From Alphaproteobacteria bacterium (GTDB lineage Bacteria; Pseudomonadota; Alphaproteobacteria; Rs-D84): a stretch of 64,000 bases of DNA. The stretch covers positions 15,455-79,454 of the forward strand of contig JAFVSL010000005.1 in assembly GCA_017503725.1 (NCBI GenBank), given 5' to 3'. The position numbers were made by a program, and so were the translations under genes. The notes beneath the pieces were generated by a model, which was not told the DNA's origin, did not search any database, and was given only the letters and a program-made list of their open reading frames with translations. This document shows, piece by piece, positions 44,301 to 63,647 of this stretch; within the stretch, counting starts at the first letter, position 1, and every line of letters starts with the position of its first letter.

Positions 44301-44326
44301 CGTCCATCCGGACGGTTGAATTTCTG

Positions 44327-44375
44327 GCACGCCCTACAGGATTCGAACCTGTGACCTGCAGATTAGAAATCGTCT
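44327..44375 (-). pseudogene. tRNA-Arg(TCT)-like 3' half: anticodon loop to CCA with no 5' half. Candidate att remnant.
   Basis: Reverse complement CGATTTCTAATCTGCAGGTCACAGGTTCGAATCCTGTAGGGCGTGCCA has an intact T-arm, acceptor and CCA. The upstream sequence is not tRNA-like. Confidence 0.55.
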
Positions 44376-44479
44376 GAACCGAAACCGATTGTTTGCCCGA
44401 TTCCCGCCCTTTGCCACCATTTTACCCTTATACTAAACTCCATACTATGTAGCAAATATGTAACATTTTTACAAAAACG

Positions 44480-45532
44480 CTACACAATTTCCCAATGACC
44501 GCCACGATCTGGACCGATACGGCGAATTTTCCCGGACTTTTTCAATTTATCCAGATTCCACTTTACACCATCCGGGCTAAGCCCTGTTGCGCTGGCCAAT
44601 TCGGCACGTGTTGCACTTGGATTCTTCGCCAATATATCCAAAATTTTCTGGGCAGTTTTCTGGGTAGTTTTCTGGGTAGTTTTCTGGGTAGTTTTTGCCA
44701 CATTTTCCTTTATCTGCATTTCACGATTATCAAGGCGATTTTTCTCGCCCAATAACAAATTACCAAAGAATTTGTTCAAGTATTCCATCGTGTACGGAAT
44801 ATTCTTTTCCAGATTTTGATAATTCGCACGAACCAGTGCATTTCTGAAATATTTCGCATGCTTTTCAAACATTTCATTGTTTGTATGCAAACCCAACGTA
44901 TCTAAATACTTTATAATAAATACAACTGTCGCGCGAGTATTCCCCTCGCCAAACGGGTGTATTTGCCATATCCCAGACATAAATTTTTCAATATGTTCTA
45001 TGCGTTGGCGTTTGGTTAAACTGCTATAATCAAACTGTTTCTCTTGTGCAAAATCGTATTCCAGCGTTTCAGCAATACTGTCTGCCCGACCATAGACAAC
45101 AGTATCATTGTTCAATATTTCTTCTTTCTTGGTTATATTATATGTGCGGAACTGACCAGCTATTTTTTTATCCAGAACACCATCAAATAAAGCCCCATGA
45201 ATCGATTTATATTCGGCCGGGCTGAATGTAAATGTCTTTTCGCTTAATAATTTCGCAATACGTGCAGATACCTTATCAGCTTCTTGCTCGTCTTGCTCTT
45301 TCTGGGTAGTTGCAGCATTTTCATGATAATAGCGATTTATTTCACGTTCTGCATCATAGACCGATATTTTCCCCTCTATATTATCTTTTGCAATATCAAT
45401 CAGATATTTAGATGGCGTTAAATTATCAACCATCTGCAGACCAATGGCAACACCCCAGTTTTCTGCACGAGTGCGTTTATCCGGTTCGCCTTGCTTTTTA
45501 TATTCACTAAAATACTGCTTTTGTCTTGCCAT
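44480..45532 (-). CDS. Fic/DOC family protein with C-terminal winged-HTH. Contains an in-frame TTQK x4 tandem repeat.
   Basis: Fic motif HPFGEGNTRAT. C-terminal wHTH (ILDILAKNPSATRAELASATGLSPDGVKWNLDKLKKSGKIRRI). Confidence 0.8.
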   Translation of the reverse strand: MARQKQYFSEYKKQGEPDKRTRAENWGVAIGLQMVDNLTPSKYLIDIAKDNIEGKISVYDAEREINRYYHENAATTQKEQDEQEADKVSARIAKLLSEKTFTFSPAEYKSIHGALFDGVLDKKIAGQFRTYNITKKEEILNNDTVVYGRADSIAETLEYDFAQEKQFDYSSLTKRQRIEHIEKFMSGIWQIHPFGEGNTRATVVFIIKYLDTLGLHTNNEMFEKHAKYFRNALVRANYQNLEKNIPYTMEYLNKFFGNLLLGEKNRLDNREMQIKENVAKTTQKTTQKTTQKTAQKILDILAKNPSATRAELASATGLSPDGVKWNLDKLKKSGKIRRIGPDRGGHWEIV

Positions 45533-45623
45533 CTCTGAATTTCATAGTAATCAAACTTCCCCACCTTTTCAACCAAGAAATAAAAACGCGGTCATTCGAC
45601 CACGTTTTTTCGTTCGGTTATAT

Positions 45624-48236
45624 TTATTCCTGTTTGTATCGTTTTTCTCTGTTTAAGAAAGCCTCAAAACCGCCCTCTAGAGCATATAATTTGGCACGTT
45701 GTTCCATATTTTCTATGGTAAAACTTGTTATGTTAGAATCTTTATCAAGATGAATCACTTGATCAGAGTCACCATTTATAACTATATTTGCATTGTGTGT
45801 AGCAAAAATAATTTGCCGTTTAGATTTGATGATTTTTAATATTTTTACTAACTCATTATATATTACAGGTTCTCCTAGGTTGCTTTCTGGTTCATCTATA
45901 ATGATTGGTGTATTTCCAAGTGATAATAATATAATAATAGTTGCGGTTGCTCTTTGTCCAAATGAGCAATCCAATATGTTTTTGTTGTTGTACAGTATAT
46001 TTATTTGTTTGTACTTAACAATATTGTTATATATTTCATCATACTTTGTTTGGAATTCATCCCAATAAATTGTTAAATAATTTGATAAATATTCGACAAT
46101 TTTTAAATCTTGTTTTTCTAACTTCTTGATATAATCTTCTGGTTTATTTATGTTTTTTGGGCATATAAAAGAATTGTTCGAAATTAGTCTCCTTTCCAAT
46201 TCAGATATAAAACTACGTTCTGTTATTTTTAATTCTTGCAATCTATGATCTAGCCAATTGATAAAATCTTTATTCGCTGTTCTATAATCAAAAGTTAATT
46301 CAAAGTTTATCAAGGAACTTTCTTTTCCGCCTATGTTAACCATCTTTTGTGATAAAGAAGTAAATTCTTCTTGTAATGTATTCTGATATGCCTTGATATC
46401 ATTATCAATGTCATTTACAACATTTTTCATAGATACTATATCCGAACGAAGTCCAGAAATTTTAATCATGCATTGTTTAATTTGCTCTTCAAGATTCACT
46501 TTGTTTTGTTCCAAAACAAGTTTGTCTGTTAAATTCTCATCGTTTTCAAAACCACGAAGTTTCAAATATTCTTTCAGTTGGTCTTGTATTTGAACGATGT
46601 CTGAATTGATAGTTTGAAGGCGTTTTTCGGTTGTTTCGAATTGTTTTGGAACAAATGTTTCACCGGCAAATACGGTATGTTCTTCTAATAAGGTTCTTAA
46701 AGATTCAAAAATTGCGTTATATGCTATTCCATATTCGCTTGACGGCTCTGCAGGAATATAATTACCTGTTTTGTGTTCATCGGAATGGTGAACAATGCGA
46801 AGTAATTCTAAAATAACTTTTGTGTATTTATCTTTTTCAATTTGTATATTATTACCTTGTAATATATTTGCTCTTAACCGTTTATTAAAATCAATATAAG
46901 TTTCATCACTAATCCCTGAAATGATTTTTTCAATGTGTTGCTGTTTAATGGTTAAATTGTTCTTTTCTGTTTCGGCATCTAATAATTGCTTGTTTTTGTT
47001 TATAATAGAAATGTAACAGGCAAGTTTATTTTGAATACGTTGTTCTATGTCAGAAAGCGTTGGAGATTGTATTCGATGTCTAACAATATTGGTTATTTCA
47101 TAATTTCTTGCTATACTCTCTATCTCGTTTTGTGTGTAGTATTCTACCTGATCTGTGTTTTTTGTTTCTGCTAAAAATTCTGTCGGTTTATATTGTTTGT
47201 TTAATATTTTGTTAATTATATGATCTCCTTTCTCTCTGATCTTTTTATTGATGGATGAAAGCCCCATTTTATAAGCCAGCAAATCTAGAAAGACCGATTT
47301 TCCTGTTCCTCTATCTCCAATTATACAAATCAGTCCTTTGTTAAGAAATACTTCTTGGTTGATTCCAGAAAAGCAAAATTTGTCCTCTTTCCCGTCCACA
47401 AGTGGTATATATACTTCATCAGGTACAGATAACCGAACATTTTCAATATTGTATAAAGATTCTTCAGGAACCGCCCCAGAAGGTTTTACCTGTATTCTAG
47501 ATTCGCATGAGCAAAGCGCCTGTCTTAGACCTTCTAGTGTTAAATCTGATTTGATCCACAAATCTGCTTTAGGGCTATATGCTCTTGCATCGTGATTGTC
47601 GGAACACAGAATCATAGGGTATACACCTATATTTGGAAATACTTTTTCTTTGTATTCTGCCATATCTCTTTCTTGTCCCATTTCAAAAATATCAATTTTG
47701 TTAACAATATCTGTTTTGATAGCTTGAGATACCTGTAACGAATTTGTTATAACATCATCGATACCATTGCTTTTTCTTCCCGCGTGTATAGATACTAGAC
47801 CATTAAATTCTCGGATTATTTCAATGGCCGCATCTATGTTTACATAGATTTCGTCCTCTGTTCTGCCATTCTGCTTCTGATGATATATACCGCCTTTGTG
47901 TTCAAACGAATTATTGATAGCATCAATGTCAACATGTTCATCAAATATCCCGATTATGTGAATATTCTCTCCAGCACCGCATTCTGTTCGAATTTCAATT
48001 CCTGGAAATACAACCAATTTATCTGCAGCTAATCTTTGTAAATTTTCTATTCTATTTTTATCAATATTGTTATGATCTGTTATTACGACCGCAGAAATAT
48101 TTTTTGAAGTTAAACTATTTATGATGTCTTCGTCGGTTATTGCATTATTTTTATAATCTGAAGAAGATGGTGTATGAAAATGCAAATCCCATTTGTGCCA
48201 TTGGGAACCACAAAAAGATTTTCTTAAATTACCCAT
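45624..48236 (-). CDS. 870-aa protein: N-terminal PHP-type phosphoesterase domain plus ABC/SMC-like ATPase with a long coiled-coil insert between Walker A and Walker B. Defence-type single-protein architecture.
   Basis: PHP motifs (WDLHFHTPSSSDY, VITDHNN, HAGR). Walker A GDRGTGKS. Walker B IIIDEPES. H-loop FATHNANIV. A coiled-coil of about 400 aa in between. The gene is AT-rich. Confidence 0.75.
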   Translation of the reverse strand: MGNLRKSFCGSQWHKWDLHFHTPSSSDYKNNAITDEDIINSLTSKNISAVVITDHNNIDKNRIENLQRLAADKLVVFPGIEIRTECGAGENIHIIGIFDEHVDIDAINNSFEHKGGIYHQKQNGRTEDEIYVNIDAAIEIIREFNGLVSIHAGRKSNGIDDVITNSLQVSQAIKTDIVNKIDIFEMGQERDMAEYKEKVFPNIGVYPMILCSDNHDARAYSPKADLWIKSDLTLEGLRQALCSCESRIQVKPSGAVPEESLYNIENVRLSVPDEVYIPLVDGKEDKFCFSGINQEVFLNKGLICIIGDRGTGKSVFLDLLAYKMGLSSINKKIREKGDHIINKILNKQYKPTEFLAETKNTDQVEYYTQNEIESIARNYEITNIVRHRIQSPTLSDIEQRIQNKLACYISIINKNKQLLDAETEKNNLTIKQQHIEKIISGISDETYIDFNKRLRANILQGNNIQIEKDKYTKVILELLRIVHHSDEHKTGNYIPAEPSSEYGIAYNAIFESLRTLLEEHTVFAGETFVPKQFETTEKRLQTINSDIVQIQDQLKEYLKLRGFENDENLTDKLVLEQNKVNLEEQIKQCMIKISGLRSDIVSMKNVVNDIDNDIKAYQNTLQEEFTSLSQKMVNIGGKESSLINFELTFDYRTANKDFINWLDHRLQELKITERSFISELERRLISNNSFICPKNINKPEDYIKKLEKQDLKIVEYLSNYLTIYWDEFQTKYDEIYNNIVKYKQINILYNNKNILDCSFGQRATATIIILLSLGNTPIIIDEPESNLGEPVIYNELVKILKIIKSKRQIIFATHNANIVINGDSDQVIHLDKDSNITSFTIENMEQRAKLYALEGGFEAFLNREKRYKQE

Positions 48237-48388
48237 ATTATTTGTGCCCTTATGTTAATATTATTATATATCCAATATACCGATACAAGTATAGCTTGGT
48301 TTAATTTTATTTTCAACCTTGCAAATACCTGTTACTTTTGCCAAAATATAAATACACAGTATATCCATATGAAGTCAGCAACCCCATC

Positions 48389-48760
48389 ATGATCACGATA
48401 TTATTATCCATTAAGCCGCAATTTGTAAAAAAGATACTTTCTGGTGAAAAGTGTTTTGAATTCAGAAAGCATATTCCAAATAAAGCGATTGATAAAATTT
48501 TGATATACAGTTCCTATCCGGTGTGTGCTGTTGTAGGAGAGGTAGAAGTTCTAAGTATAATATCTACATCGCCAAAAAAGCTGTGGGAAGAAACTAAAAA
48601 TCAATCGGGAATTGATTCTGAGTTCTTTTTCAAATATTTTGCCGGCAAGGATACAGCATACGCATATAAGCTAGGCAAAATAACAAAATATCCAATTGCA
48701 AAACAGTTAAGTGACTTCGGGGTAAAATATGCCCCTCAGTCATTTGTTTACATAAAGTAA
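48389..48760 (+). CDS. ASCH (PUA-like) domain protein
   Basis: MITILLSIKPQFVKKILSGEKCFEFRK resembles the N-terminal beta-barrel of ASCH domains. ATG at 48389. The six-frame ORF begins at a TTG at 48338. Confidence 0.5.
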   Translation: MITILLSIKPQFVKKILSGEKCFEFRKHIPNKAIDKILIYSSYPVCAVVGEVEVLSIISTSPKKLWEETKNQSGIDSEFFFKYFAGKDTAYAYKLGKITKYPIAKQLSDFGVKYAPQSFVYIK

Positions 48761-48761
48761 A

Positions 48762-49727
48762 TTACCATTCTACATCGATGTAAAACATATCGGCTGGTTG
48801 ACCAAGCAACTGTATATCGAATTTCAAACTTGGTTCTACAATCGTGCTGGCACTGTGTATTCTGAAAGATATCGCCCAACCATTGTCCATTGTTAACACG
48901 ATGGTCGTTTTAGAACCGGGTTTGTATGCTAATTCAATAATTCTTGTAGGTAGTTTGATTTTTGGGATGCTAATCTGCGGTTTAGACACTTTAGATGACT
49001 GGTTTAGGGTGCCGCATACATTAAATGGCATTACTGTGGTTTTATGATCGTTATGGTGGATTAGTTTATAATAATCTTTGCCATTTGACCCCAGTAGATA
49101 TGCGATTATTCCAGATGTAACTTTATCATTATGCAGTTTGAATAGGCTATTAAACTCATCAATAAATGCATCTAAAACTGGCACATAAACGCCATCTTGC
49201 TTATCTGGTAAATCTGACCACGCCACACCGTTATGTTTCAACTCTATAAGCCGGTTAAAAATTGGAGTTATAGCAGAAAAATATTTGTCCGAGCACGGTA
49301 AACCAAACCATTCGTTCCCAAAATCAATATGTTGGGACAATCTGGAGTGTTTAAGAGCAGCATGATTATGTTTCACGGATATCCCTATCTCCCATTTAAT
49401 ATCTCTGCGAATTATGATGACATCACGAATATCACCAGTTCTTGCAATATTATCTGGTTGTAAAAATATTGTCAACGCATCTCTTCCGTCTTCAATGATC
49501 TTTGGTTCCATTTGAATAATGACATCTATACCGGCTGCAGCTGATTTTAGCATATCTTGCTGAACTGTTTCTGTTACACATTCAAAACATTGTTTAGCTA
49601 CCGCAAAGCTGGAGTTTTCTTCAATCGTCACAGGACGGATCTTGGAAACCTTATCATGTATTGTTTGCAAACATGCGTATTCGTATGCCTTGCCCATAAT
49701 CATTGATTGTTCGGTGGATCTGTTCAT
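48762..49727 (-). CDS. Probable Type II restriction endonuclease partnered with the adjacent C5-methyltransferase
   Basis: 321-aa ORF overlapping the MTase stop by 4 nt on the same strand. No sequence motif is conclusive. Assignment is by context and size. Confidence 0.45.
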
Positions 49728-50713
49728 TCGGTTAAATCCTCCATAATCTGTTTTGCAATTTCAAAAGCTAGATTGACAGGAACTGCATTGCCAATCATTT
49801 TGTATCCCACAGCAACATCGGTATATACAAAAATGAAGTCATCCGGGAAGGTTTGGATTCTTGCGCACTCGCGCACGGAAAGTCTGCGATAAGCAGATTC
49901 TTGTCCTTTTACAAATTCGAACTTGTCAGTACTTGCCTTTTGCATAGCTGGTGCGCTGGGGTGTAATGGTGCTTGGCGACCTCCAGCCTGAATAGTGAAA
50001 GAAGGTTCATTCCATCCCCTTACACGATTTCGTGACATAAATATAGAAGACCAGCCACCGATCATGTATTCATGATTAGGAATTTGCAATTCTCCATTGG
50101 TCTTGTTCTTTTCTTTTGCTGGAATTGCGGTCGGCAAATCGCCGATCGCATCTTTCAGGGTTGGCTTATATTCTTTTGGTGCAGGAAACACAAATTTCTT
50201 TTTAAGATCTTTGCGATATCCAATTATGATAACCCTTTTGCGGGTTTCTGGAACGTTATAATCATTAGCATCCACCAATTGCCAGAATATATCATATCCA
50301 CAATCTTCAAATTCTTTTAGAAATCCCTGAAACGCATCAGCGTGTTTTGGATGTAATATGCCAGCCACATTTTCTACCAAGAAGAACTTGGGTTGTTTTA
50401 CTTTCAAAATCCGAATATAGTCATAAAACAGTTGGCCTCGTTTATCTTCTATTCCTCGTCTCGCTCCAGCTTCCGACCAACTTTGACATGGAGGTCCACC
50501 TATAATGCCGATAGAATCTGGGATTTCGCTAGCATCAACATCGGTAATGCTACGTCTGTCCAGCTTAGTGTGTGGAAAATTACGTTCAAAAGTCGCCCAT
50601 ATAGTTTTATCAAACTCATTTGCCCATATAGTATGAAAACCTGCTTTTTCAAAACCTAAATCTAAACCACCAGCACCGCTAAAAAACGACACAACACTAA
50701 AATCTTTCGACAT
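49724..50713 (-). CDS. DNA (cytosine-5)-methyltransferase, from memory closely resembling the GGCC-specific M.HaeIII
   Basis: Motif [12 protein letters not shown], motif [11 protein letters not shown], motif VI ENVAGIL, the C-terminal ...[16 protein letters not shown], and the variable region ...KNKTNGE...[33 protein letters not shown]. Confidence 0.9.
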
Positions 50714-50844
50714 TTTCCTTCCCTTTGGGTTTCTCTCAAAGGGCGGAATAATTAAACCACGAAATTGTTGTTACACAAAAACAATTGCTGAAATCGGTTG
50801 ATTTTCGCGGTTTTTTTATTTACAATTTTGGAACAATTAAAGGG

Positions 50845-51441
50845 TCATTTTCTGCTTTCAAGAAATCGCGAAATTGTGGGCGGGCTGACCCGGATAGTTC
50901 TGGCAATTTTTCGTTTAGAAACTCCTGCTGAATACATATCTAAAATCAAGTTTTCATGACCGTCAATGATATGGTAAGTATTCTTTTGGCCATTTGGACG
51001 GCCCAGTTTTACACCGCGTAATTGCAATGCTGCCAATGCCTCTTTGGTGCGCTGGGCGATAAGATTACGTTCAATCTCAGCTGATAGCCCAAATGCAAAC
51101 GCTAAAACCTTAGATTGAATAGTGTCACCCAACTCATAGCCATCTTTGACGGTATAAAGACGCGCCCCTATTTTCATGCAATGTTCCAATATTCGCATAA
51201 TCATGAACATTTTTCGCCCAAGACGCGAAAGTTCACTACATATTATAACGTCGCCCGGATTTAAATGTTGCAAAACACCGCCTAATGCGCGTTGCTCTGG
51301 CTCTTTGGTGCCGGAAATGCCCGCATCTTCAATGTATTTATCAATACAAAGCCCTAATGCGCTGGCTTTGGATTCAATGCCCAATTTTTGGTTTTCACAG
51401 TCTTGTTTATCGGTCGAAACCCGAATATACCCATATATCAC
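50845..51441 (-). CDS. Serine recombinase (resolvase/invertase family)
   Basis: N-terminal catalytic MIYGYIRVSTDKQ (Ser nucleophile). C-terminal HTH. 198 aa. Confidence 0.85.
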   Translation of the reverse strand: MIYGYIRVSTDKQDCENQKLGIESKASALGLCIDKYIEDAGISGTKEPEQRALGGVLQHLNPGDVIICSELSRLGRKMFMIMRILEHCMKIGARLYTVKDGYELGDTIQSKVLAFAFGLSAEIERNLIAQRTKEALAALQLRGVKLGRPNGQKNTYHIIDGHENLILDMYSAGVSKRKIARTIRVSPPTISRFLESRK

Positions 51442-51597
51442 AATAAACTCCTTTGGTTTGTTGTTCTATATGCCGTAGATTTCATTTTATTCAAGTAAAA
51501 ATAATGTTGATATTACCCTTGCTTTTACTAAATGTCGTATTATTAAACTGGATGTTTGCGCTGGTTGTGCTTTGTTTGTTCTAAAAAAGGAGTAAGC

Positions 51598-52767
51598 ATG
51601 ACATTAAAAGAATCAATCAACAACCTAGAAATACGGATAATCAAGGATAAACAGCAACTTATTCGCCTAGAGCGGGAATTAAATAAAAATCAACAACTAA
51701 CAATAAAAATCTTGCAACAAATTTGTCAGCAAATGCAAATGACACAAAAAACACAGTATACCAAGCGGTTATCAATTGGTGAGGTGCTGGAACGTTACAG
51801 AATAAAAAACGGAATAGACAGCGAGGAGACCAAGCGTAAATGCAAAACTATAGCATATTATTCAAATAAAGTAGGCTTAGAATTGAAATGCGAGTATACA
51901 AAATTTCATAGGGATGTAATTTTGTTGAAAATATTTAATGAAATATCAGATAGAAAAGATATAAAGGGGGATCAGAAAGCAAAGCATGCTAGATGGATTG
52001 TTAGTTTTGTAAAATTTGCAGTATTTGCATATCCTGACCTGTATAAAACAGATGTGCTGGTTGGACTTCCATCTATGAAAAAAACACCCAAAAGCGCCAA
52101 ATGCCCCCATACTCCATATACAGATGAACAATTGAAGTCTATTTTTGACCCGAATAAGAAATTCTTTTATTATAATCCAGAGATTTTTTGGGGGTGTATG
52201 ATAGCATTATTTACTGGTGCAAGAAAAAATGCAGCATTTACATTACAATACAAAGATATAATTCTAAAAGATGGTATTTGGTGTATAAATTTCATAGAAG
52301 ACAGTCCAGGAATTAAACAATTAAAAACAGAAGAGTCTGAGCGAATAGTACCAATTCATTCGGCGCTTTTGAAAATGGGTTTCTTAGAATACATCAATAA
52401 AAAACATAAAAACAATGATCAAGATTTTATCTTTAAAAAGACATGCTTGACCTCCAAAGGCAATCTAAATCCTCACATTACGAGGAACTTTTTTATATAC
52501 CTAAAAGATATCGGTGTAAAAAATCCAGAATATGGAAGGTTTGATTTTCATTCATTCCGTAAAAATGCAAACATTATGATGGAAAAATGCGGGATACTCC
52601 GACCCTATATAGATAAGATTATCGGTTGGATGAGTCGTGGTAGCGAGGGCGAAAGATCATATTCAAATTACTCCATAAAACAAGTGTCGGAACAATTAGA
52701 ATTATTACGCTACGATTGTCTCAAAACGGAATTTAAGAGATGGCAAAAGATAATGTCTAAGATATAA
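51598..52767 (+). CDS. Tyrosine integrase/recombinase (phage integrase family)
   Basis: C-terminal catalytic region with R...H.FRKNA...GW...Y pattern. RBS AAGGAG upstream of ATG 51598. Confidence 0.7.
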   Translation: MTLKESINNLEIRIIKDKQQLIRLERELNKNQQLTIKILQQICQQMQMTQKTQYTKRLSIGEVLERYRIKNGIDSEETKRKCKTIAYYSNKVGLELKCEYTKFHRDVILLKIFNEISDRKDIKGDQKAKHARWIVSFVKFAVFAYPDLYKTDVLVGLPSMKKTPKSAKCPHTPYTDEQLKSIFDPNKKFFYYNPEIFWGCMIALFTGARKNAAFTLQYKDIILKDGIWCINFIEDSPGIKQLKTEESERIVPIHSALLKMGFLEYINKKHKNNDQDFIFKKTCLTSKGNLNPHITRNFFIYLKDIGVKNPEYGRFDFHSFRKNANIMMEKCGILRPYIDKIIGWMSRGSEGERSYSNYSIKQVSEQLELLRYDCLKTEFKRWQKIMSKI

Positions 52768-52839
52768 AAAATTCGATTATTTCACTAGATATTCCATTTT
52801 TTGTTGGCATTGTTGTGTTGAAAAAACAAGAGGCACAAC

Positions 52840-53373
52840 ATGACAACGATAAACAAGCAACACGGGTTCTATGGTGCACTGGCGACACGCTATGACAGTC
52901 CGGTCCACCGACAGGAAATCTGGGACTTAGCGATTAAACGCCTGGGGCAAATTCACTCCGAAAAGTCCGCCGCAGAAATCGTAGACTTTCTGAACAGTCG
53001 TACCGGGCGACACCTGGCCGATGAAATATTTGATGACCCCGGCACCCTAAGCTATGGGGTGGCGATGCTACGCATAGCAATGCTGAACAGGCTTAAAATG
53101 GCGAAATGGTGGGCGCATTACAGTGGCACCACGCTGCACACAGCGCCGGTGGACAAGCGTATGCTGTACCGATCGGCAATCAAGAACGAGATGCGCAATC
53201 GGCAAATACGAAAACTGATAGAAGATGCGCTGGCGTGCACCCATTACGAAGTTTGGCAGACCCCAGAAATGTGGTTGAAATCAGACCTGACAGGTTTGGA
53301 CGAGCTGGAAATGATGTGGACACAGATTCAGCAAGAACTAAAAACCAAAGGCGCCACACATGGAAACGATTGA
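52840..53373 (+). CDS. Hypothetical island protein
   Basis: ORF with ATG. No motifs recognised. Confidence 0.4.
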   Translation: MTTINKQHGFYGALATRYDSPVHRQEIWDLAIKRLGQIHSEKSAAEIVDFLNSRTGRHLADEIFDDPGTLSYGVAMLRIAMLNRLKMAKWWAHYSGTTLHTAPVDKRMLYRSAIKNEMRNRQIRKLIEDALACTHYEVWQTPEMWLKSDLTGLDELEMMWTQIQQELKTKGATHGND

Positions 53374-53629
53374 TGCACTGGAACGGAAACTGCACGCCGC
53401 CCAACAACAGGCATGCAACGCTAAATACCCAACGGGGCTGATAGTTGATCTGAACGGGCCAGCCGGCAATATCTTCTATCTTATGGGCATGTGTAATCGG
53501 CTGGTACGGGAACTGCAATTAAGGCCCGCTGAACGCCAAGAATTTGAAACCGAACTATATGCCACCAGGGACTATCAATCCCGACTGGCTGTCATGGCAA
53601 AATGGTTCGGAATCGTGTTTGTAAAGTAA
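53360..53629 (+). CDS. Hypothetical island protein, 89 aa, start overlapping the upstream stop
   Basis: ORF only. Confidence 0.35.
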   Translation: METIDALERKLHAAQQQACNAKYPTGLIVDLNGPAGNIFYLMGMCNRLVRELQLRPAERQEFETELYATRDYQSRLAVMAKWFGIVFVK

Positions 53630-53702
53630 AACCTGGATTGTTTTTTAAGTCCACAAAAAAAGATCTTCTTACTTTATTGCTTTTTCTTGATTTTTATGGA
53701 TT

Positions 53703-54173
53703 ATGGGGTATGATTTCTGTATGAAAAATAATAATCGACGTGTTATTCTTAACCGTTTTTTTGAAGAATTGGACGATGAGACAAAGTGGACACGGGCACG
53801 CGTTGAGGCACAAATTTATTCTGCGGTCATCCTTGCTATTCAGATGGATAAAAACGACAAAACACGGCAACACATGTTGGCAACATGGCCGGCGGAATGT
53901 TCTGTTCGATATGAATGGTTTGAATCTGTTATTGCAGACGTTAAATTGCCCCCAAATATAGCCCCCTTTGATAACACACACGATAATTTTTATAATGTTT
54001 TGGTGCATTGGTTAGATTCTGTGGACAGTGTCACAGATAGAAAATTATTGATTCTGCATTCAATCGGTTTATCAATGAATAAAATCGGCAAAAAGACTGG
54101 GCTGTTACGTCAGACCGCCAGTCGTCGTTACACCAACGCAATCGATGCGCTGGTTTGGAAATTAAACCACTAA
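53703..54173 (+). CDS. Hypothetical protein with C-terminal HTH resembling sigma-70 region 4 or a LuxR-type helix
   Basis: LILHSIGLSMNKIGKKTGLLRQTASRRYTNAIDALVWKL. Confidence 0.4.
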   Translation: MGYDFCMKNNNRRVILNRFFEELDDETKWTRARVEAQIYSAVILAIQMDKNDKTRQHMLATWPAECSVRYEWFESVIADVKLPPNIAPFDNTHDNFYNVLVHWLDSVDSVTDRKLLILHSIGLSMNKIGKKTGLLRQTASRRYTNAIDALVWKLNH

Positions 54174-54334
54174 ACAAACTAACCTGTATACTTATATCGT
54201 ACCTTTTTATACCGTAAAGTAACCTAAACTAACTTAATTTCCTTTTTGTCGCAAAAACGTGCATTGCGCACGGTTATTTTTTATGCATATATCTTTACAT
54301 AGACTCATCAAAACCCGAAACAAAAGGACAAACC

Positions 54335-54544
54335 ATGACAACAATATTATCCAAGGACGAATATATGACGGAACGCGCGCTGGCTGAAATGTGGGGATTG
54401 AAACGCAATACTTTACAAAAATGGCGCAGTACCGGTGTTGGACCAAAATTTCTAAAACGTGTTGGTCGCATTGTATATCGGAAACAAGATATAGCTGAAT
54501 TTGAACAAAACAACATATTTCAGCGTACAAGCGACAAGCAATAG
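54335..54544 (+). CDS. AlpA-like excisionase / MerR-type HTH DNA-binding protein
   Basis: 69 aa. LAEMWGLKRNTLQKWRSTGVGPKF is typical of AlpA/Xis-family prophage regulators. Lies among the integrases. Confidence 0.55.
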   Translation: MTTILSKDEYMTERALAEMWGLKRNTLQKWRSTGVGPKFLKRVGRIVYRKQDIAEFEQNNIFQRTSDKQ

Positions 54545-54547
54545 GAA

Positions 54548-55135
54548 ATGGTTATGAAACGGCTGGCCAATCCAAAATGGGCACTTTTATTGGAAAATAT
54601 ATCACGCGAAGAACGCGGCGACATATTTATGGCGATTTTGAAATACCCCGACTTGGAATGTTCAAGCGCTGTGTGGCCATTTATAAAAGCCGAACTAGAT
54701 GAAGACGATATTAAATATAAAGCCAAATGTGAACGACTGGCCACGAACAGATTGGCGCGTTGGGGCGAACAGAATTCATCAGATATCAAACAGAACTTAT
54801 CAGATATCAGACAGAAATCAGATGCAATAGCAAATAGCAAGTACAGTACAAACACAATAAAACAAAACAAGGAAATGCATACTCATACGAATGATTTGCT
54901 TCAAAAATTAGCAACTTCTTTTAACCCATCACGAGAGCCAACATATCACATAGACAACGAATTTTCGTTAGCCAAAATCATTAAGAGAACCCCAAACTTG
55001 TTCCCAATATTCGATGAATTTACACCGGAACAAATTGCAAATGGGGAAACCTCATTGAAACGCAAATGCATGGGACAAGATAAAACGATGGCACAAATCA
55101 TAGGATGGATAAGAAATGAAGGAAATTTCACATAA
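54548..55135 (+). CDS. Hypothetical island protein
   Basis: ORF only. Confidence 0.4.
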   Translation: MVMKRLANPKWALLLENISREERGDIFMAILKYPDLECSSAVWPFIKAELDEDDIKYKAKCERLATNRLARWGEQNSSDIKQNLSDIRQKSDAIANSKYSTNTIKQNKEMHTHTNDLLQKLATSFNPSREPTYHIDNEFSLAKIIKRTPNLFPIFDEFTPEQIANGETSLKRKCMGQDKTMAQIIGWIRNEGNFT

Positions 55136-55248
55136 AAACATAATAGGTTCTGTGACGAGTTTTCACATTGAGGGTAACGGCGACCGCGACACTTGCCTAG
55201 CGACAGAAATAAAAAAACGGTGAACGGCGAACACTAAAAGGGGTAACG

Positions 55249-55728
55249 ATGTTATTATCTAGAAGAGAATATGCCGCACATCGCGGTGTTGCGGTATCCG
55301 CAGTCCAAAAAGCCATTGAAACAGGACGAATAACACTAATAGACGGGAAAATAGACCCCGAAAAGGCGGATAAAGAATGGGCAGAGAACACTAACCCAGC
55401 CTATAACACCCCGCGCACAAATGACAGTTCTTCAAATTCTTATCAAAGAAGCAAAGCAATGAAGTCGACATACGATGCAATGCTGAAAAAACTGGAATAC
55501 GAAGAACGTGTAGGAAAGCTAATACCATTAGCACAAGCACAATCTGAGGCTTTTGCGGCAGCCCGATTTTCAAGGGATCAATTACTGATGATTCCGCGAC
55601 GTGTTGCACCGCGACTTATCGGACAAACAAACATTTCCGACATTGAGTATATCTTGACCCAAGAAATTACAGAGGCGTTAAGAAATTTATGCAACATATT
55701 ACAAGGAAACAAAGGAGAACAAAAATGA
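55249..55728 (+). CDS. Hypothetical protein with N-terminal HTH-like segment
   Basis: RBS AAAAGGGG. REYAAHRGVAVSAVQKAIETGRI is HTH-like. Confidence 0.4.
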   Translation: MLLSRREYAAHRGVAVSAVQKAIETGRITLIDGKIDPEKADKEWAENTNPAYNTPRTNDSSSNSYQRSKAMKSTYDAMLKKLEYEERVGKLIPLAQAQSEAFAAARFSRDQLLMIPRRVAPRLIGQTNISDIEYILTQEITEALRNLCNILQGNKGEQK

Positions 55729-55955
55729 CACAAAACACAAAAACTGAAATCAAAACTGCATGGGATAAAACAGTTGCATTTTTAATAGAAAAATCAGACA
55801 CAGTATCTGAAAACATCGCATTGGAAATAATAGGAAAACCCAAAGATGAAATACATGCAATTTTAAGTCGCGCAATGACAGAATTCTGGGACATGGGCGA
55901 GCAATATTTCATACAAGAAATCCGCAAAAGCCAGCAAAAAATACAAGAGTCTTGA
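55725..55955 (+). CDS. Hypothetical small protein, 76 aa
   Basis: ATGA overlap with the upstream gene. RBS AAAGGAGAAC. Confidence 0.4.
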   Translation: MTQNTKTEIKTAWDKTVAFLIEKSDTVSENIALEIIGKPKDEIHAILSRAMTEFWDMGEQYFIQEIRKSQQKIQES

Positions 55956-56018
55956 TAGTCTTATTCACTGGACTTGTGCGCTTTTATTATCAATGTTGTG
56001 TGTAACAAAGGACAACAT

Positions 56019-57230
56019 ATGCGGGCACTTAAATGTCAAAAGTTGGTTTTAACAACAGGATTTCTGAACAAACTGAAATCCGACATTGATTTGCAAATAA
56101 CAGATGCAGCACTGCCAGGGCTACAATGCCGGTATTCGGCCGCATCTGGACGCAAAGTGTTCTATTTGGGATATCGCGTTCGCGGTTCATATCAACAAAA
56201 GCATATGAGATTGGGCACATTGGCGGAATTTAGCTTAAATGAGATTCGCGCACGTGCGATACAAACCAAACAAGATATCGCCAACGGTCTGGACCCGCAA
56301 TCAGAACAACGCATACGCATAAAGCAAAACGAAATGGCCGCAGCACGACGTAAACAAGTCCGTGAACTAACCCCAATATTTATGGAAAAACATTGTCGCG
56401 AAAATAATCGGGAAAACACCTATCGCTCAAACGAAACATTGATGCGCCTATATATAATCCCATATCTTGGCGATAAATACATTGCAGATATTGATCTGCG
56501 CACAATCCAGGATATGTACGATAAAATCAAAAACACAAAAACCGTTGCTGTTGGATTGCATGTTATGCGGTTATTATCGACCTTTCTAAATTGGTGTGAA
56601 AAATACAATTATCGCACAATAAATTCGAATCCGTGCCATTTGGTTCAAAAGGCAAAATCCCCAAAGATGAACCATACGATTCTAGATATTGATGGTTATA
56701 AACGTTTATTTACTGCACTGGACGAGGCATTTTGCGCTGGGAAATATGCACCACAAACCATCCTGGCTATTAAAACACTTGCGCTGACGGGCTGTCGCAG
56801 CAGCGAAATAACAAGCCTGGAACGGGACGAATTAGACCTAGAAAACGGGTATCTACGTTTAAATAAACGCAAAACAGATGCATTTAATGTACCGCTGGGC
56901 GATCCAGCAATCGAAGTTATAAAACAGGCATTGAGAATTTGTAAAAGCAAACAGTATGTTTTTCATTCCCCAATTGACCATACACGCCCATTAACCGATT
57001 TACGTAAAGCGTTCTGGTGGGCATTGGATCGTGCTGGATTACCGCGTATGCGAATACACGACCTGCGCCACTCTTTTGCAACACTGGCCACCAGCATGGG
57101 CGAAGATATACGAATATTAAAAGACGTATTGGGACACACAAAAATCACCACAACTGAAATATACGCACACGCATCAAGTATTGCGGCACGCCGCACTGCA
57201 AACAATGTTGCAAGCATGATAACAGGATAA
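56019..57230 (+). CDS. Phage-type tyrosine integrase (P4-like), convergent on tRNA-Arg
   Basis: Catalytic residues in ...GCRSSEITSLERDELDL... HDLRHSFATLA ... TTEIYAH (R, H-x-x-R, Y). RBS AAAGGA upstream of ATG 56019. Confidence 0.85.
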   Translation: MRALKCQKLVLTTGFLNKLKSDIDLQITDAALPGLQCRYSAASGRKVFYLGYRVRGSYQQKHMRLGTLAEFSLNEIRARAIQTKQDIANGLDPQSEQRIRIKQNEMAAARRKQVRELTPIFMEKHCRENNRENTYRSNETLMRLYIIPYLGDKYIADIDLRTIQDMYDKIKNTKTVAVGLHVMRLLSTFLNWCEKYNYRTINSNPCHLVQKAKSPKMNHTILDIDGYKRLFTALDEAFCAGKYAPQTILAIKTLALTGCRSSEITSLERDELDLENGYLRLNKRKTDAFNVPLGDPAIEVIKQALRICKSKQYVFHSPIDHTRPLTDLRKAFWWALDRAGLPRMRIHDLRHSFATLATSMGEDIRILKDVLGHTKITTTEIYAHASSIAARRTANNVASMITG

Positions 57231-57296
57231 ATTGGTGAATACTGGGTCAACAAATAAAAAGAAAATCGGGGTAAACCCGATTTAATTTTTGGCGTG

Positions 57297-57373
57297 CCCA
57301 GCAGGATTCGAACCTGCAACCTATTGCTTAGAAGGCAATTGCTCTATCCGGTTGAGCCATGGGCACAAAACCA
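57297..57373 (-). tRNA. tRNA-Arg (anticodon TCT), CCA encoded. Its 3' end faces the integrase.
   Basis: Reverse complement GTGCCCATGGCTCAACCGGATAGAGCAATTGCCTTCTAAGCAATAGGTTGCAGGTTCGAATCCTGCTGGGCACGCCA folds as a perfect cloverleaf. Confidence 0.85.
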
Positions 57374-57570
57374 ACTGTATGGAATTCGGCACACCATGCG
57401 ACCAATTCCTGTGTAACATTCTATGTAACAAATATGTAACATTATACATACAATTACATACAATTCAATCAATCTGTGTCAAGTTTTATACAGAACTGAT
57501 TTTCACGCACACCCGCATAAATCCAACCTTTATACATCTTTATCCAAATCTATCCATAAAAATTGCGGAC

Positions 57571-57618
57571 GATTAGAAATCCGATGCTCTATCCAGCTGA
57601 GCTACGGGCGCACGACGC
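57571..57618 (-). pseudogene. tRNA-Arg 5' half (acceptor, D-arm, anticodon stem 5' strand and loop TTTCTAA), broken after the anticodon loop
   Basis: Reverse complement GCGCCCGTAGCTCAGCTGGATAGAGCATCGGATTTCTAATCG, then non-tRNA sequence. Its acceptor matches the fragment at 44195-44213. Confidence 0.55.
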
Positions 57619-57685
57619 ACATTTTATATCAAAATTATTAAGATTTCAAGCACACACAAATAAAAAATGCCCCAACGGGGCATTT

Positions 57686-58318
57686 TTAATCATCAACAGC
57701 TTTCTTTAACTGGCGCAGTTCTATAAACATATAGACGTCTGCCGCCGCATAAAACAGCATTGTTATCGCCAACCAATACACAACTGCGACCGCACCCGCC
57801 ATCGGCCAGAACAGCAACGCAATCGCCAGCGTACATAACGCCAACGCCACAATCAAATCAAAAACCCAATGCCCAAATCGCGCGCGCGCCATATTTATTG
57901 CAAAAATCAATGCACGCAGTGCTTTGAAAAGGAACAAGACCAAAAACACATACAGTAACGCAATCATTGACCCCGCCGGATATACCAGGAACAACACCCC
58001 TAACACAACATTCGCCAATCCAAAAATAACATCAACCCAGCCACCACCATATGGGCGCGCCACAACAAAGCCAGCAATTGCACGATAAAGCCCAAACAAT
58101 ATCAATCCACACCCCAGCACAAACATCAAAGTCGTCAAAACCGCCAACGGTTTAAAAGCCATAAACAGCGCAATTACCCCCAGTAATAAAGCCTCGCCCA
58201 ACAGCAAGGGCGCACTTTTATTATATAATCTTTCAACCGATGCGGCAATCGCATCACGTGCATTGCCACGCGTCATTTTTTTCGTATTTTTTGATGCTGT
58301 ATTTTTACTTTTTACCAT
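57686..58318 (-). CDS. HdeD-family (DUF308) membrane protein
   Basis: Six-TM pattern with repeated G..L..G motifs. Lys-rich N-terminus. Confidence 0.6.
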   Translation of the reverse strand: MVKSKNTASKNTKKMTRGNARDAIAASVERLYNKSAPLLLGEALLLGVIALFMAFKPLAVLTTLMFVLGCGLILFGLYRAIAGFVVARPYGGGWVDVIFGLANVVLGVLFLVYPAGSMIALLYVFLVLFLFKALRALIFAINMARARFGHWVFDLIVALALCTLAIALLFWPMAGAVAVVYWLAITMLFYAAADVYMFIELRQLKKAVDD

Positions 58319-58411
58319 AAAATCCCCCTATTGTTTATATATGGGGGATTATAAAACAAACATCCTAAACATCCAAGGGATTAGTATTCCCAGGCACAAA
58401 AACCGCACCCC

Positions 58412-58771
58412 TTAGGCAAAGAACACAAACAACCACACACACACAACCGCAGTAATGGTTAATAATACAATCGCACTGCCAATATCTTTGGCGCGACCGG
58501 ACAATTCGTGATATTCGGGCCCTATTCTGTCAACGATATTTTCAATGGCACTATTAACCAATTCTGCAACCAGCACACACACCATTGACACCGCCAACAC
58601 AACACGCTCTGTCATTGTTATATTGGCAAACGTCAACACAATCACACCAATTACACACATAAACAATTCTTGGCGAAATGCGGCCTCGTTCTGGGCAACC
58701 GCACGCAACCCATTCCACGAATTTTTAAATGCGGCCATAATTCGATTTAGACCCTTTTTTTTATTCGTCAT
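58412..58771 (-). CDS. dgkA: Diacylglycerol kinase
   Basis: Three-TM protein of about 120 aa with the conserved ...ELVNSAIENIVDRIG... motif. Start at an internal ATG. The six-frame ORF extends to 58810. Confidence 0.75.
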   Translation of the reverse strand: MTNKKKGLNRIMAAFKNSWNGLRAVAQNEAAFRQELFMCVIGVIVLTFANITMTERVVLAVSMVCVLVAELVNSAIENIVDRIGPEYHELSGRAKDIGSAIVLLTITAVVCVWLFVFFA

Positions 58772-60191
58772 TTGATTCGCCCCCAACCGACAGTTTGTAA
58801 TACAAATCATTTTTCTGTTCCATCAATTCCTGTAATGACATATCACCATACTTCTCGCGCAGGGTTTTAACCCCCGCACAACGCGCACTCATCGCCGTCC
58901 CCAGGCCCAACCGGCATCCCGGGACGATGCCACCGGCGGCCTCTATGACCGTTGGAAAGAAATCAAATGCCGCCACCGGACGCGACGTATCAACACCCCG
59001 GAACACATCGTCTGCATTGATGAACACATTATTCAGCGCACGCGACCCCAATGGACTTAATTTTTTCATAATATCCCCAGAATGTTGCATATGATCGTTT
59101 ACCAGGATAACAACCGCGGTCGGATCTTGGCTACGAAACCATTCAACAAAATCTGCGATAATTTTATCCTCGCATTTGGCGATATCTTCCATATTTTCCT
59201 GTTTAAAACCCAAATCGCGACAATACTGGGTATAGTACCCCTTGCAATGCGTATTTATCGTTTCCATAAAGATAAAATAAGGTTGACCAGATTTTATAAT
59301 ATCCGCAATCATTGGACGCGTCATTTCAAACAAAGTTCCATCATCTATGCCCTCGAACGGAATAACGTCCAGTTCATAATCCAACATTGCGCGCAAACGC
59401 ACCCCATCGAATATATTTTCAAATCCCATACGTCGCAAGAAATTTTCTTTCAACGAAAATTTTCCACTGGCTGGAAAAAAGGACCAGGTTTGATATCCAT
59501 TCTTTACAAAGACATTTCCAATACCACTGGCCCCCAGCATTTTTTCAATGCTTTTATAACTGGAAAAGAACAACGGCAACCCAGTCACCATCCCCGTTAT
59601 CGCGGCAATAGTATGCGACAGTCCAGACAACACCCGATAATCTTCGAACGATACATTATCGCGTTCCATTTGCGTGATATGCGGTGTCAAACCACCCGCC
59701 CCGAACAGATTTTCATCCGCATATGGTTTTTCCATACTTTCCAAAGCAATCATCAAGACATTGCGTTTATTTTTAAATGTAATCTTTGTCTTCTCGGGAA
59801 AGACATATTCACGTTCATAAAAATCCGAAACCGTTGTGTTAAAGAAACTGCCGAATTGTATATTTGCATCAACAATCCGCATTCCCAACACAACAACCAA
59901 ACCAACATACACCAAAATTGGTACAATTTTATATTTTCTAAGCAGACCACACACCACCGTCAAAATCACAGACCACAATGCGGAACGTAAAATAACCTTG
60001 CGAATAAAAGACCAAAATATTTCTGCATCAACGCCACCCATACCAACCTGTAACATCAGTGACACTTCATCCATATTGATGCGCCCAAACAGGTCGCCAA
60101 TCCACTTAATCGTGCATTCCAACAACAATATAAACAACACACACGACCACAAAACAAATAACTTTTTATCAAAATTAAATTTAAAAGACAT
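58761..60191 (-). CDS. Sulfatase-superfamily membrane protein, probably a phosphoethanolamine transferase or LTA-synthase-like enzyme
   Basis: N-terminal multi-TM domain plus a periplasmic alkaline-phosphatase/sulfatase-like domain. Lies immediately upstream of dgkA. Confidence 0.55.
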   Translation of the reverse strand: MSFKFNFDKKLFVLWSCVLFILLLECTIKWIGDLFGRINMDEVSLMLQVGMGGVDAEIFWSFIRKVILRSALWSVILTVVCGLLRKYKIVPILVYVGLVVVLGMRIVDANIQFGSFFNTTVSDFYEREYVFPEKTKITFKNKRNVLMIALESMEKPYADENLFGAGGLTPHITQMERDNVSFEDYRVLSGLSHTIAAITGMVTGLPLFFSSYKSIEKMLGASGIGNVFVKNGYQTWSFFPASGKFSLKENFLRRMGFENIFDGVRLRAMLDYELDVIPFEGIDDGTLFEMTRPMIADIIKSGQPYFIFMETINTHCKGYYTQYCRDLGFKQENMEDIAKCEDKIIADFVEWFRSQDPTAVVILVNDHMQHSGDIMKKLSPLGSRALNNVFINADDVFRGVDTSRPVAAFDFFPTVIEAAGGIVPGCRLGLGTAMSARCAGVKTLREKYGDMSLQELMEQKNDLYYKLSVGGESNDE

Positions 60192-60282
60192 AACGCCCCC
60201 GGTGCTATGCTAAGAAATATATCATACGCACGCCTCTATTTCCATTTGAAAAAAGACAATAATTATAACGAATTATAACGGG

Positions 60283-60612
60283 TTATTCCGCCAGATATTT
60301 ATTTGCCAACGAAATCAATTTAATCAAAGATTCAAATTTTTTTATACCCATTTTTTGGGATAAATCCGATAAAAGACGTTGATTTGTCGCCAAATATTCC
60401 AAATACAATTTACGTCCCTTTTTGGTTGGCAAAATTATAACACTGCGCCCATCATCGGGCGACACTACACGCGATACATATCCCAAATCCGCCAACATCA
60501 TCGGCGTATGCGGCCCCGGCATTGTGCACAAAATTTCCAACACCAACATCTGGCTGTGCCGAATCGGCATCCCCGAATTGGCCCGCATATACGCCCGACA
60601 GAACAAATCCAA
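60283..60612 (-). CDS. MarR-family transcriptional regulator
   Basis: Winged-HTH region (HSQMLVLEILCTMPGPHTPMMLADLGYVSRVV...GRSVIILPTKKGRKL). Confidence 0.55.
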   Translation of the reverse strand: MDLFCRAYMRANSGMPIRHSQMLVLEILCTMPGPHTPMMLADLGYVSRVVSPDDGRSVIILPTKKGRKLYLEYLATNQRLLSDLSQKMGIKKFESLIKLISLANKYLAE

Positions 60613-60746
60613 CTCTTAATTTCCAGAACCCATAATAATTCACCCCGGTTAATTAGTATACTTAATCTATATTAACTAAATCGATAAAAAATTACAACAA
60701 AAAAAGACGGTCATACAACCGTCTAAAACGATTATGTTTATACGCA

Positions 60747-62438: not shown

Positions 62439-62507
62439 AACAAACCTCACATTTATTAGCGCATTTAATAAAAATACCGCACTGAATGCGGTGTTTTTAT
62501 TTATCTC

Positions 62508-62584
62508 TGGTCGGGGCGAAAGGATTCGAACCTTCGACATCTTGGTCCCAAACCAAGCACTCTACCAGACTGAGCTACACCCCG
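62508..62584 (-). tRNA. tRNA-Pro (anticodon TGG), CCA encoded
   Basis: Reverse complement CGGGGTGTAGCTCAGTCTGGTAGAGTGCTTGGTTTGGGACCAAGATGTCGAAGGTTCGAATCCTTTCGCCCCGACCA. Anticodon loop TTTGGGA. Confidence 0.8.
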
Positions 62585-62681
62585 AAACGAGTCCCATTAT
62601 AACAGTATTTTTTCAAAATGCAAATTTTATATTTAATTTTGTGCTTGTCTGAAATTGTGAAAATTTCTATGATATAGATAT

Positions 62682-63647
62682 ATGAACAAGTACGTGCATT
62701 TTTTTGGTTTATTACTGGCAATTACAACCACGTCTGCATCGGCGGTGGCGGTATCAACCACGCCACGCGCAACGTCCCAGTATATCAAGCGCGACACATA
62801 TAACTATATGTACCCATATATGAACAATCAAATGCGTACAGACCTGAACCCTGGTGTCACAGTATCGCAATCCACCAATCCAATGGACGTCGTGGTAAAG
62901 ACCAAGCCATTATCAAATTCAACATCCTCACGTCGTGTCGTACCACGCGGCAACGCACAAACAACCGCGCGCGCGGCCACAGCAAATTTAACGCAACCCG
63001 CCACGCAACAAACGAATCGTCGCGTGGTTGCCCGGCGCGCAACAAACACGAACGCAATACCCACAATGGCGCGTGGCAATCGCCGCACCAGTCCGGTTGT
63101 CACAAACGAACGAAACGCATCATCAACAACAATAACCAGCGCAAAAGAGCCCGTATCAACCGCGCGCTGTATGGCGGACTATACCGAATGTATGAACCAA
63201 TATTGTGAACGTGCGGACACTGAATATAACCGCTGTTATTGCAGTGCAAAACTGTCCCAAATCGATGCAAAATACCAACCAGAAATTCAAAATTTAATTA
63301 ACAAGATTTTAACGGCAAAATCGACCAACAAATGGTCTGATGCCGAAATGAACGAATATTGGATGAATACCGTCGGTGGTTATACGGGCGGTGATAATTC
63401 CTGGGCCAATCTGGACGATGCCTTGAACATTGATTGGGCGGGTCTGGAAAGCACCGTACGCGGTCAAAGCGCATTCACGATGGGACACGAATATTGTGTT
63501 CAGCATTTAAACAATTGTTACTATATGTCATCAAATTTGCGTGACGCGTACCGATCGGAAATATCACGTGATTGCGCGATATACGAACAATCATTACAAC
63601 GTATCAAGACCGCCGCCGAAAGTTTATTGGAGTATTATGATGATTGA
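62682..63647 (+). CDS. Family-C secreted protein, short paralog. Signal peptide, Thr/Ala/Arg/Asn-rich low-complexity region, then CMADYTECMNQYCERADTEYNRCYCSAKL.
   Basis: Cys motif and architecture parallel the ORF at 6140..8845. Confidence 0.6.
   Translation: MNKYVHFFGLLLAITTTSASAVAVSTTPRATSQYIKRDTYNYMYPYMNNQMRTDLNPGVTVSQSTNPMDVVVKTKPLSNSTSSRRVVPRGNAQTTARAATANLTQPATQQTNRRVVARRATNTNAIPTMARGNRRTSPVVTNERNASSTTITSAKEPVSTARCMADYTECMNQYCERADTEYNRCYCSAKLSQIDAKYQPEIQNLINKILTAKSTNKWSDAEMNEYWMNTVGGYTGGDNSWANLDDALNIDWAGLESTVRGQSAFTMGHEYCVQHLNNCYYMSSNLRDAYRSEISRDCAIYEQSLQRIKTAAESLLEYYDD

Follow-up and report, generated by a model that had tools for sequence, protein, structure and literature searches.

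The 64,000-nt stretch of DNA analysed here (the window, to which all coordinates refer) belongs to a metagenome-assembled genome (MAG) of Candidatus Enterousia sp., an uncultured gut alphaproteobacterium, and carries on its reverse strand two adjoining genes that most probably constitute a two-gene Type IIP restriction-modification (RM) system orthologous to HaeIII and specific for GGCC. The upstream gene, M (49724-50713, -), encodes a 329-aa C5 DNA methyltransferase, an orthologue of M.HaeIII whose predicted product is GG(m5C)C, and the downstream gene, R (48762-49727, -), encodes a 321-aa HaeIII-family Type IIP restriction endonuclease with a predicted cut at GG^CC. Both open reading frames (ORFs) had been pointed out in a preliminary description of the locus and are present in the ORF list, the interval 49724-50713 given there being that of M alone.

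The two genes are tightly joined. As had been described, the 321-aa ORF at 48762-49727 lies on the same strand as M and overlaps its stop codon by 4 nt: the TGA of M (49726-49724) runs into the ATG of R (49727-49725) to form an ATGA (49724-49727, -), legible in the junction sequence GGAGGATTTAACCGAATGAAC. A GGAGGA Shine-Dalgarno sequence for R (49737-49742, -) is found within the 3' end of M, 9 nt 5' of the R ATG, and the ATGA overlap is taken to indicate translational coupling of the two genes. On the other side, the leader of M (50716-50743, -) combines an AAGGA Shine-Dalgarno sequence (50720-50716), which precedes the M ATG at 50713, with a 7-bp hairpin, CCCTTTG-N9-CAAAGGG (50743-50721, -), located between the resolvase stop codon and the M start, directly 5' of the ribosome-binding site. 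This hairpin, which contains neither a T-run nor a GGCC site, could conceivably act in weak termination or in regulation. No gene for a Vsr repair enzyme or for a controller (C) protein was found in a search of the surroundings of the RM pair.

The methyltransferase and the endonuclease

The assignment of M is based on several profiles and on the structures of M.HaeIII itself. The protein matches the Pfam family DNA_methylase (PF00145) with an E-value of 2.2e-95 (320 bits, for a cutoff of 22) over profile positions 1-323 of 324, as well as TIGR00675 (dcm) at 4e-81 (273 bits, cutoff 100.65), and an identical protein is recorded at NCBI as a 'DNA cytosine methyltransferase' (MBR2393122.1). The canonical C5-methyltransferase motifs that had been claimed for M are in place, since a pattern search located five of them (motifs I, IV, VI, IX and X) in the form of FSGAGG at residue 11, PPCQ at 74, ENV at 114, RECARIQ at 281 and GNAV at 308; in the alignment with 1DCT, motif VIII reads ETRKR, that is, the canonical QxRxR with Q replaced by E and RxR kept. 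The best structure matches are two entries for M.HaeIII, 1DCT at 420 bits and 3UBT at 416 bits, followed by M.HhaI at approximately 127 bits. In a global alignment with 1DCT the identity is 60.2%; by segment, it rises from 55% (catalytic half) through 71% (residues 205-250, the core of the recognition region) to 75% (C-terminal part), and the catalytic Cys76 of M corresponds to Cys71 of M.HaeIII.

The recognition region of M had been described as close to that of M.HaeIII, and in the HMMER alignment with 1DCT every residue quoted in that description is indeed identical to its counterpart in M.HaeIII. The four residues published as base contacts are the same in both proteins (Ser227 corresponding to Ser224, Arg228 to Arg225, Arg230 to Arg227, and Arg246 to Arg243), the segments IFMSRNRVR and GRQ that surround them are identical, and Ile224, the equivalent of Ile221, is conserved. 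Directed evolution guided by the 1DCT structure indicates that GGCC recognition is altered by mutating Arg225 (first G), Ser224 and Arg227 (inner bases), and Arg243 (PMC3526282).

R, in turn, matches the Pfam family RE_HaeIII (PF09556) over all 298 profile positions (E = 4.8e-119; 397.4 bits, cutoff 25), and REase_II, the profile that PADLOC uses for Type II restriction endonucleases, at 2.5e-111 over positions 6-317 of 318. The identical NCBI protein, MBR2393121.1, bears the name 'HaeIII family restriction endonuclease', and a database search returned more than 4000 homologues, with PF09556 present in 120 of 120 among the matches listed. Membership in PF09556 was also examined through its family-invariant patterns, namely a GKxxE helix, GD(I/V)xD and SxKHNHxALKH; R carries the family residues G12, K13, E16, D99, D102, S117, K119, H120, N121, H122, K126, H127 and R129. 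Among relatives down to 26% identity these residues are invariant, as are D92 and the KHNHxALKH segment, K13 being the exception, with Arg in the three most distant members. At the E-values obtained, chance is excluded as a source of the ORFs, the motifs and the family matches.

The HaeIII subfamily was left without a fold in a 2008 classification of Type II enzymes (PMC2441816). Neither the R sequence by itself nor a profile of 51 sequences retrieved any meaningful match among PDB chains, and the link to known nucleases is thus made through structure comparison only. An AlphaFold model of R built from 51 homologues (pLDDT 90.5, pTM 0.82) has MspI and HinP1I as its closest structures, followed by other PD-(D/E)XK nucleases, and structure comparison recognizes in it the alpha-beta-beta-beta-alpha-beta core of that fold. 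The invariant acidic and S-V-K candidates (E16, D99 or D102, and S117-V-K119) fall on predicted helix 1 and strands 2-3, with the middle acidic residue replaced by Ser, and this placement in the predicted secondary structure suggests that the catalytic motif is a D-X17-S-X-K variant. MspI and HinP1I have catalytic motifs comparable to this candidate. R is modelled as a PD-(D/E)XK-fold endonuclease resembling MspI and HinP1I; the preliminary description had named a match of the 321-aa ORF to a non-nuclease family as a refutation, and the ORF falls instead in a nuclease family, the one that had been expected, by RE_HaeIII, by REase_II and by its predicted endonuclease fold.

The arrangement of the two genes recurs throughout the family. 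A scan of species-representative genomes provided 55 related loci, of which 43, with a strong R match and upstream sequence, could be counted, and all 43 carry a C5-methyltransferase gene directly upstream of R and in the same orientation. The window thus follows the family norm, and the proposal that the M-R overlap represents the classic arrangement of a cognate pair is borne out. The commonest spacings are the 4-nt overlap (11 of 43 loci) and a 1-nt overlap (8 of 43), and the SRNR contact motif is kept in 37 of the 43 upstream methyltransferases. Four Bacteroidales and Muribaculaceae loci (L015, L019, L023 and L024) display two tandem C5-methyltransferase genes upstream of R, the copy adjacent to R being devoid of SRNR in three of the four.

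Proposed mechanism and alternative readings

In terms of strength, the membership of M and R in their families is practically beyond doubt, whereas specificity for GGCC is very likely and activity in vivo likely; cleavage by R is predicted to be blunt, at GG^CC. Within the proposed mechanism, M would flip the inner cytosine of GGCC out of the helix and methylate it, with S-adenosylmethionine as cofactor and Cys76 as the nucleophile, generating GG(m5C)C, and this mark would shield the many GGCC sites of the host, while phage or plasmid DNA that enters the cell with unmethylated GGCC would be cleaved by R. With M placed first, an ATGA overlap between the genes and the R Shine-Dalgarno sequence located inside M, the synthesis of R would be tied to prior translation of M, a coupling that would provide protection before restriction and would allow the cassette to settle in a new host with no need of a dedicated controller.

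The frequency of GGCC itself is informative with regard to how the host would be protected. The preliminary description had expected the surrounding chromosome to be depleted in GGCC, or methylated at it. By comparison with a Markov expectation, the flanking chromosome (window positions 1-44312 and 57614-64000, 50.7 kb) contains 179 GGCC sites where 229.5 are expected (observed/expected ratio, O/E, 0.78; z -4.6, the fourth-lowest score of the 256 tetramers), and the island that carries the pair (44376-57572, 13.2 kb) contains 16 where 23.9 are expected (O/E 0.67, z -2.0). Depletion is thus weakly present, but not to a protective degree: the 179 chromosomal sites amount to one per 283 bp, which is above the expectation from base composition only, and protection from an active R must consequently come from methylation. 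Strong GGCC avoidance was considered as evidence for the RM system and rejected, its O/E of 0.78 being far weaker than that of CATG (12 observed and 173 expected, O/E 0.07) or GATC (O/E 0.30) in the same chromosome, where AGCT and CTAG, too, fall far below what base composition would predict. These tetramer counts suggest that systems specific for CATG and GATC have long acted on the host lineage. The island itself holds nearly as many CATG sites as expected (O/E 0.79), and this relaxation of the avoidance fits a recent foreign origin of the island.

Variation between copies of the cassette was followed by comparison with two copies that are approximately 98% identical to the window (L002 and L004). 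R differs from them at 3 nucleotides, all 3 synonymous, and M at 69-71 nucleotides, of which 63-64 lie in synonymous codons (64 of 71 for L002); M and R are under purifying selection. The differences are unevenly spread, since the interior of M (49800-50600) has diverged by approximately 8.5%, nearly all of it synonymous, and R and the rest of the cassette by approximately 0.3%. This packing of the differences in M into a 0.8-kb tract between stretches of near-identical DNA points to recombination, by which M alleles were exchanged over this tract and the protein sequence was preserved.

Several points weigh against the view of the pair as an active, GGCC-specific system of the HaeIII type. 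GGCC specificity and activity in vivo are both inferred from sequence, model and context. The placement of R in the HaeIII family derives from Pfam and PADLOC profiles and from NCBI naming. The modest under-representation of GGCC could stem from any past GGCC system, and the search for a promoter of M gave nothing clear, the best candidate being a weak match, TTGAGA-16-GAAAAT, at 50739-50712. Sister strains carry R pseudogenes, one of which (P0122), with a stop codon just before Trp112, is present on 22 contigs of up to 211 kb, which indicates that the system is dispensable and sometimes lost. Lastly, the specificity of M.HaeIII can be relaxed by few substitutions (PMC3526282), so that residues beyond those checked here could matter.

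The pseudogenes and the faintness of the promoter could be taken together to mean that the system is genetically intact but silent or decaying, with R unexpressed or inactive and M in effect a solitary methyltransferase. In addition to P0122, a second R gene from a sister strain is split near residue 160 into two halves (P0129 and P0131), and it is usually by such breakage of R that Type II systems decay. Against this, the R copy in the window is intact and full length and holds every family-invariant residue, the R protein is identical on at least 14 contigs with nucleotide changes that are synonymous only, and the start of R follows a good Shine-Dalgarno sequence and would be coupled to the translation of M; silence is consequently regarded as unlikely. 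The inactivated genes P0122, P0124, P0129 and P0131 all belong to the cluster of the window R, and suggest recurrent loss of restriction. A further reading keeps the same two families but assigns them a shifted or relaxed site, such as GGNCC, GGWCC or a longer site containing GGCC. M differs from the prototype at 40% of its residues, and a few mutations are enough to widen or narrow the specificity of M.HaeIII (PMC3526282). The identity of the four base-contact residues and of the IFMSRNRVR and GRQ segments, together with the retention of SRNR in 37 of the 43 family loci, renders such a shift quite improbable. We know of no characterised PF09556 member with another specificity.

Two other proposals extend beyond the pair. 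M could in principle be part of another multi-gene defence system, such as Druantia or DISARM, and the 321-aa ORF unrelated to it, since PADLOC matches M to DruM (9.8e-104) and to DrmMII (2e-64). Both are in effect generic C5-methyltransferase models, and MTase_II is the top PADLOC match of M (1.6e-109); as profile scans of the window revealed no DruE, DrmA, DrmB or other signature genes, and the adjoining ORF is a bona fide HaeIII-family endonuclease, this proposal has a negligible probability. The other proposal is that M and R form a three-gene module with the neighbouring ASCH/PUA-like gene, moved or inverted by the Mpi-like serine recombinase encoded upstream of M, and that the ASCH-like protein reads or modulates m5C. 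If this were true, the locus would be a phase-variable or recombinase-mobilised HaeIII-type cassette with a third component that had gone unrecognised. The ASCH-like gene, R and M are exactly bracketed by an imperfect inverted repeat of 22 nt (48285-48306 and 50750-50771; 17 of 22 positions complementary, with a 10-nt exact core). Shuffling makes only a marginal case for this repeat as a recombinase site (4 of 300), the distant loci do not have it, and it was retained only within this low-probability reading; no inverted copies of the three genes were seen, the orientation being the same in the best 8 of 14 contigs. The three-gene module is thus considered very doubtful, and the two-gene HaeIII-type system is the reading retained in what follows.

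The island and its other genes

The RM pair lies in a 13.2-kb genomic island of low GC content (44361-57581), with 11-bp direct repeats, GATTAGAAATC, at both ends (44361-44371 and 57571-57581) and a GC fraction of 0.28-0.40 inside, against approximately 0.45 outside. Joining the two GATTAGAAATC repeats rebuilds an intact tRNA-Arg(tct) that ARAGORN accepts as valid, and the island has thus split that gene; the break falls in the anticodon loop, leaving the 5' half at 57571-57612 and the 3' half at 44324-44371. An intact tRNA-Arg(tct), identified by ARAGORN and by this reconstruction, is located inside the island next to the integrase gene (57290-57366, -), and apparently replaces the gene that was split. 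A 27-nt direct repeat, 93% identical between its copies at 44441-44467 and 57417-57443, lies approximately 70 bp and 130 bp inside the two island ends, and may provide putative arm-type binding sites for the integrase, which carries an Arm-DNA-binding domain.

This tyrosine integrase (55974-57230, +; phrog_1, 6.8e-57) belongs to the right half of the island (52840-57230), which also encodes an AlpA-like excisionase (54335-54544; phrog_66, 1.7e-6), a small terminase subunit (TerS; 55249-55728; phrog_57, 9.7e-29) and DUF6291/DUF6362-like proteins, with no other virion genes; no primase or replicase was recognised in the island. PICI-like phage satellites are recognised by an integrase, an AlpA-type excisionase or regulator and a small terminase, without virion genes, in some 10-15 kb between defined att sites. 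By its gene set the island resembles such a satellite and is a candidate for one; it holds integrase, AlpA-like and TerS-like genes, measures 13.2 kb and has 11-bp att repeats.

The left half of the island contains, in order, a second tyrosine recombinase, the Mpi-like serine recombinase, M, R, the ASCH-like gene, a PHP-ATPase gene and a Fic gene. The second tyrosine recombinase (51556-52767, +; Pfam Phage_integrase 1.4e-10, phrog_1 3e-20) is divergent from the gene of the serine recombinase, an Mpi-like invertase or resolvase located directly upstream of M (50845-51441, -; Pfam Resolvase 3e-31). The latter scores 246.8 bits against the Mpi family model NF009949, which is under the cutoff of 272, and is kept together with M and R in L001-L008 and in L011. 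On the other side of the pair, the ASCH/PUA-like small protein (48338-48760, +; PADLOC PDC-M11B 1.3e-43, phrog_3136 and a weak Pfam ASCH match), which probably starts at 48389 and would then be 123 aa long, is encoded convergently with R, the two stop codons being 1 nt apart. Its gene adjoins M and R in every copy of the cassette, as well as in a distant locus from a Rickettsiales MAG (L043, 1886-2257); a PDC-M11A partner was searched for in the window, L011 and L043, and none was found.

Next in line is an 870-aa protein of the TrlF family, Ppl-like, that combines a PHP domain with an ABC-type ATPase (45624-48236, -; NF045780 TrlF 2e-113, above cutoff; Ppl models 8e-35 and 1.3e-30), and that is neighbouring defence cargo, outside the RM system. 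It is followed by further cargo, a Fic-domain protein with a C-terminal winged helix-turn-helix (44480-45532, -; PDC-S72 1.2e-113, Pfam Fic and HTH_24). A 12-nt tandem repeat within the Fic gene, TTTTCTGGGTAG, present in approximately 4 copies at 44644-44691, encodes a KTTQ-type linker between the Fic domain and the winged helix-turn-helix; the copy in L002 has 346 aa instead of 350, and divergence from it is sharp at 44400-44800. In L011 (7349-8838), a CBASS cyclase and a NucC effector stand in place of the PHP-ATPase, the cassette being otherwise identical, while in L004 other genes replace Fic and in L002 the flanks are different; in both L002 and L004 the cassette occurs in other genomic contexts. 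These differences in the cargo beside the resolvase-M-R-ASCH block point to a swappable defence slot, and the RM pair is carried as cargo in this slot of an integrase-bearing 13.2-kb island within a tRNA-Arg gene.

The annotation of both genes is already correct in public databases through automatic pipelines, and the pair is an uncharacterised but routine HaeIII-type system, of little importance beyond that annotation. The Candidatus Enterousia lineage is predicted to carry GG(m5C)C, which could be of use for binning by methylation motif and, were the organism cultured, for preparing methylation-compatible DNA for transformation. The locus also adds one more RM system to those that ride in a swappable defence slot of a small integrative element. 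Its mildly new by-products are the predicted assignment of the HaeIII endonuclease family to an MspI/HinP1I-like PD-(D/E)XK fold, and an island that resembles a satellite and replaces the tRNA gene in which it resides.

Comparison with known systems

Enzymes that cleave GGCC do not form a single lineage, and a 2014 review describes HaeIII, NgoPII and BsuRI as convergent solutions to this task (PMC4081073). The NgoPII/MthTI/FnuDI and BsuRI/BspRI enzymes have the same site as that predicted for R, and are likewise accompanied by cognate C5-methyltransferases, but are evolutionarily unrelated to R.HaeIII (PMC4081073). NgoPII and MthTI, which had been considered as relatives of R.HaeIII, were dropped on the basis of that review. 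In a Pfam scan of R at E <= 0.01, similarity of the NgoPII/MthTI or BsuRI type was absent and RE_HaeIII was the only family returned. Pfam has a separate model for NgoPII. Given the convergence between these families, the membership of R is specifically in the HaeIII family.

MspI and HinP1I, the monomeric PD-(D/E)XK Type IIP enzymes to which the model of R is closest, also recognise 4-bp sites; these are CCGG and GCGC, and their cut positions differ from the GG^CC predicted for R. Their sequence identity to R is only 8-9%, with no HMMER match even when the family profile is used, and R has an extra C-terminal beta-rich region that they lack.

Closer to the window pair are the HaeIII-family pairs of loci L009-L053, from gut or host-associated MAGs of Bacteroidales, Saccharibacteria, Alphaproteobacteria and others, which share the M-then-R order on one strand, mostly with an overlap of 4 or 1 nt, and keep SRNR in M. 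Their R proteins are 55-75% identical to that of the window, and 100% in L011; an ASCH-like neighbour is present only in L011 and L043, and some of these loci have two methyltransferases.

HaeIII itself, from Haemophilus aegyptius, is known through the M.HaeIII structures 1DCT and 3UBT and through R.HaeIII, the type member of PF09556. The window M and M.HaeIII are 60% identical from end to end and have their motifs and GGCC contacts in common, and the window R matches the family profile end to end and falls in the same length class (317-324 aa), within a two-gene Type IIP layout without controller protein that is common to both systems. The window pair differs from HaeIII in its occurrence in an uncultured gut alphaproteobacterium (Candidatus Enterousia), in the change of 40% of the residues of M, and in its situation as cargo on a tRNA-Arg island, beside a serine recombinase and an ASCH-like gene.

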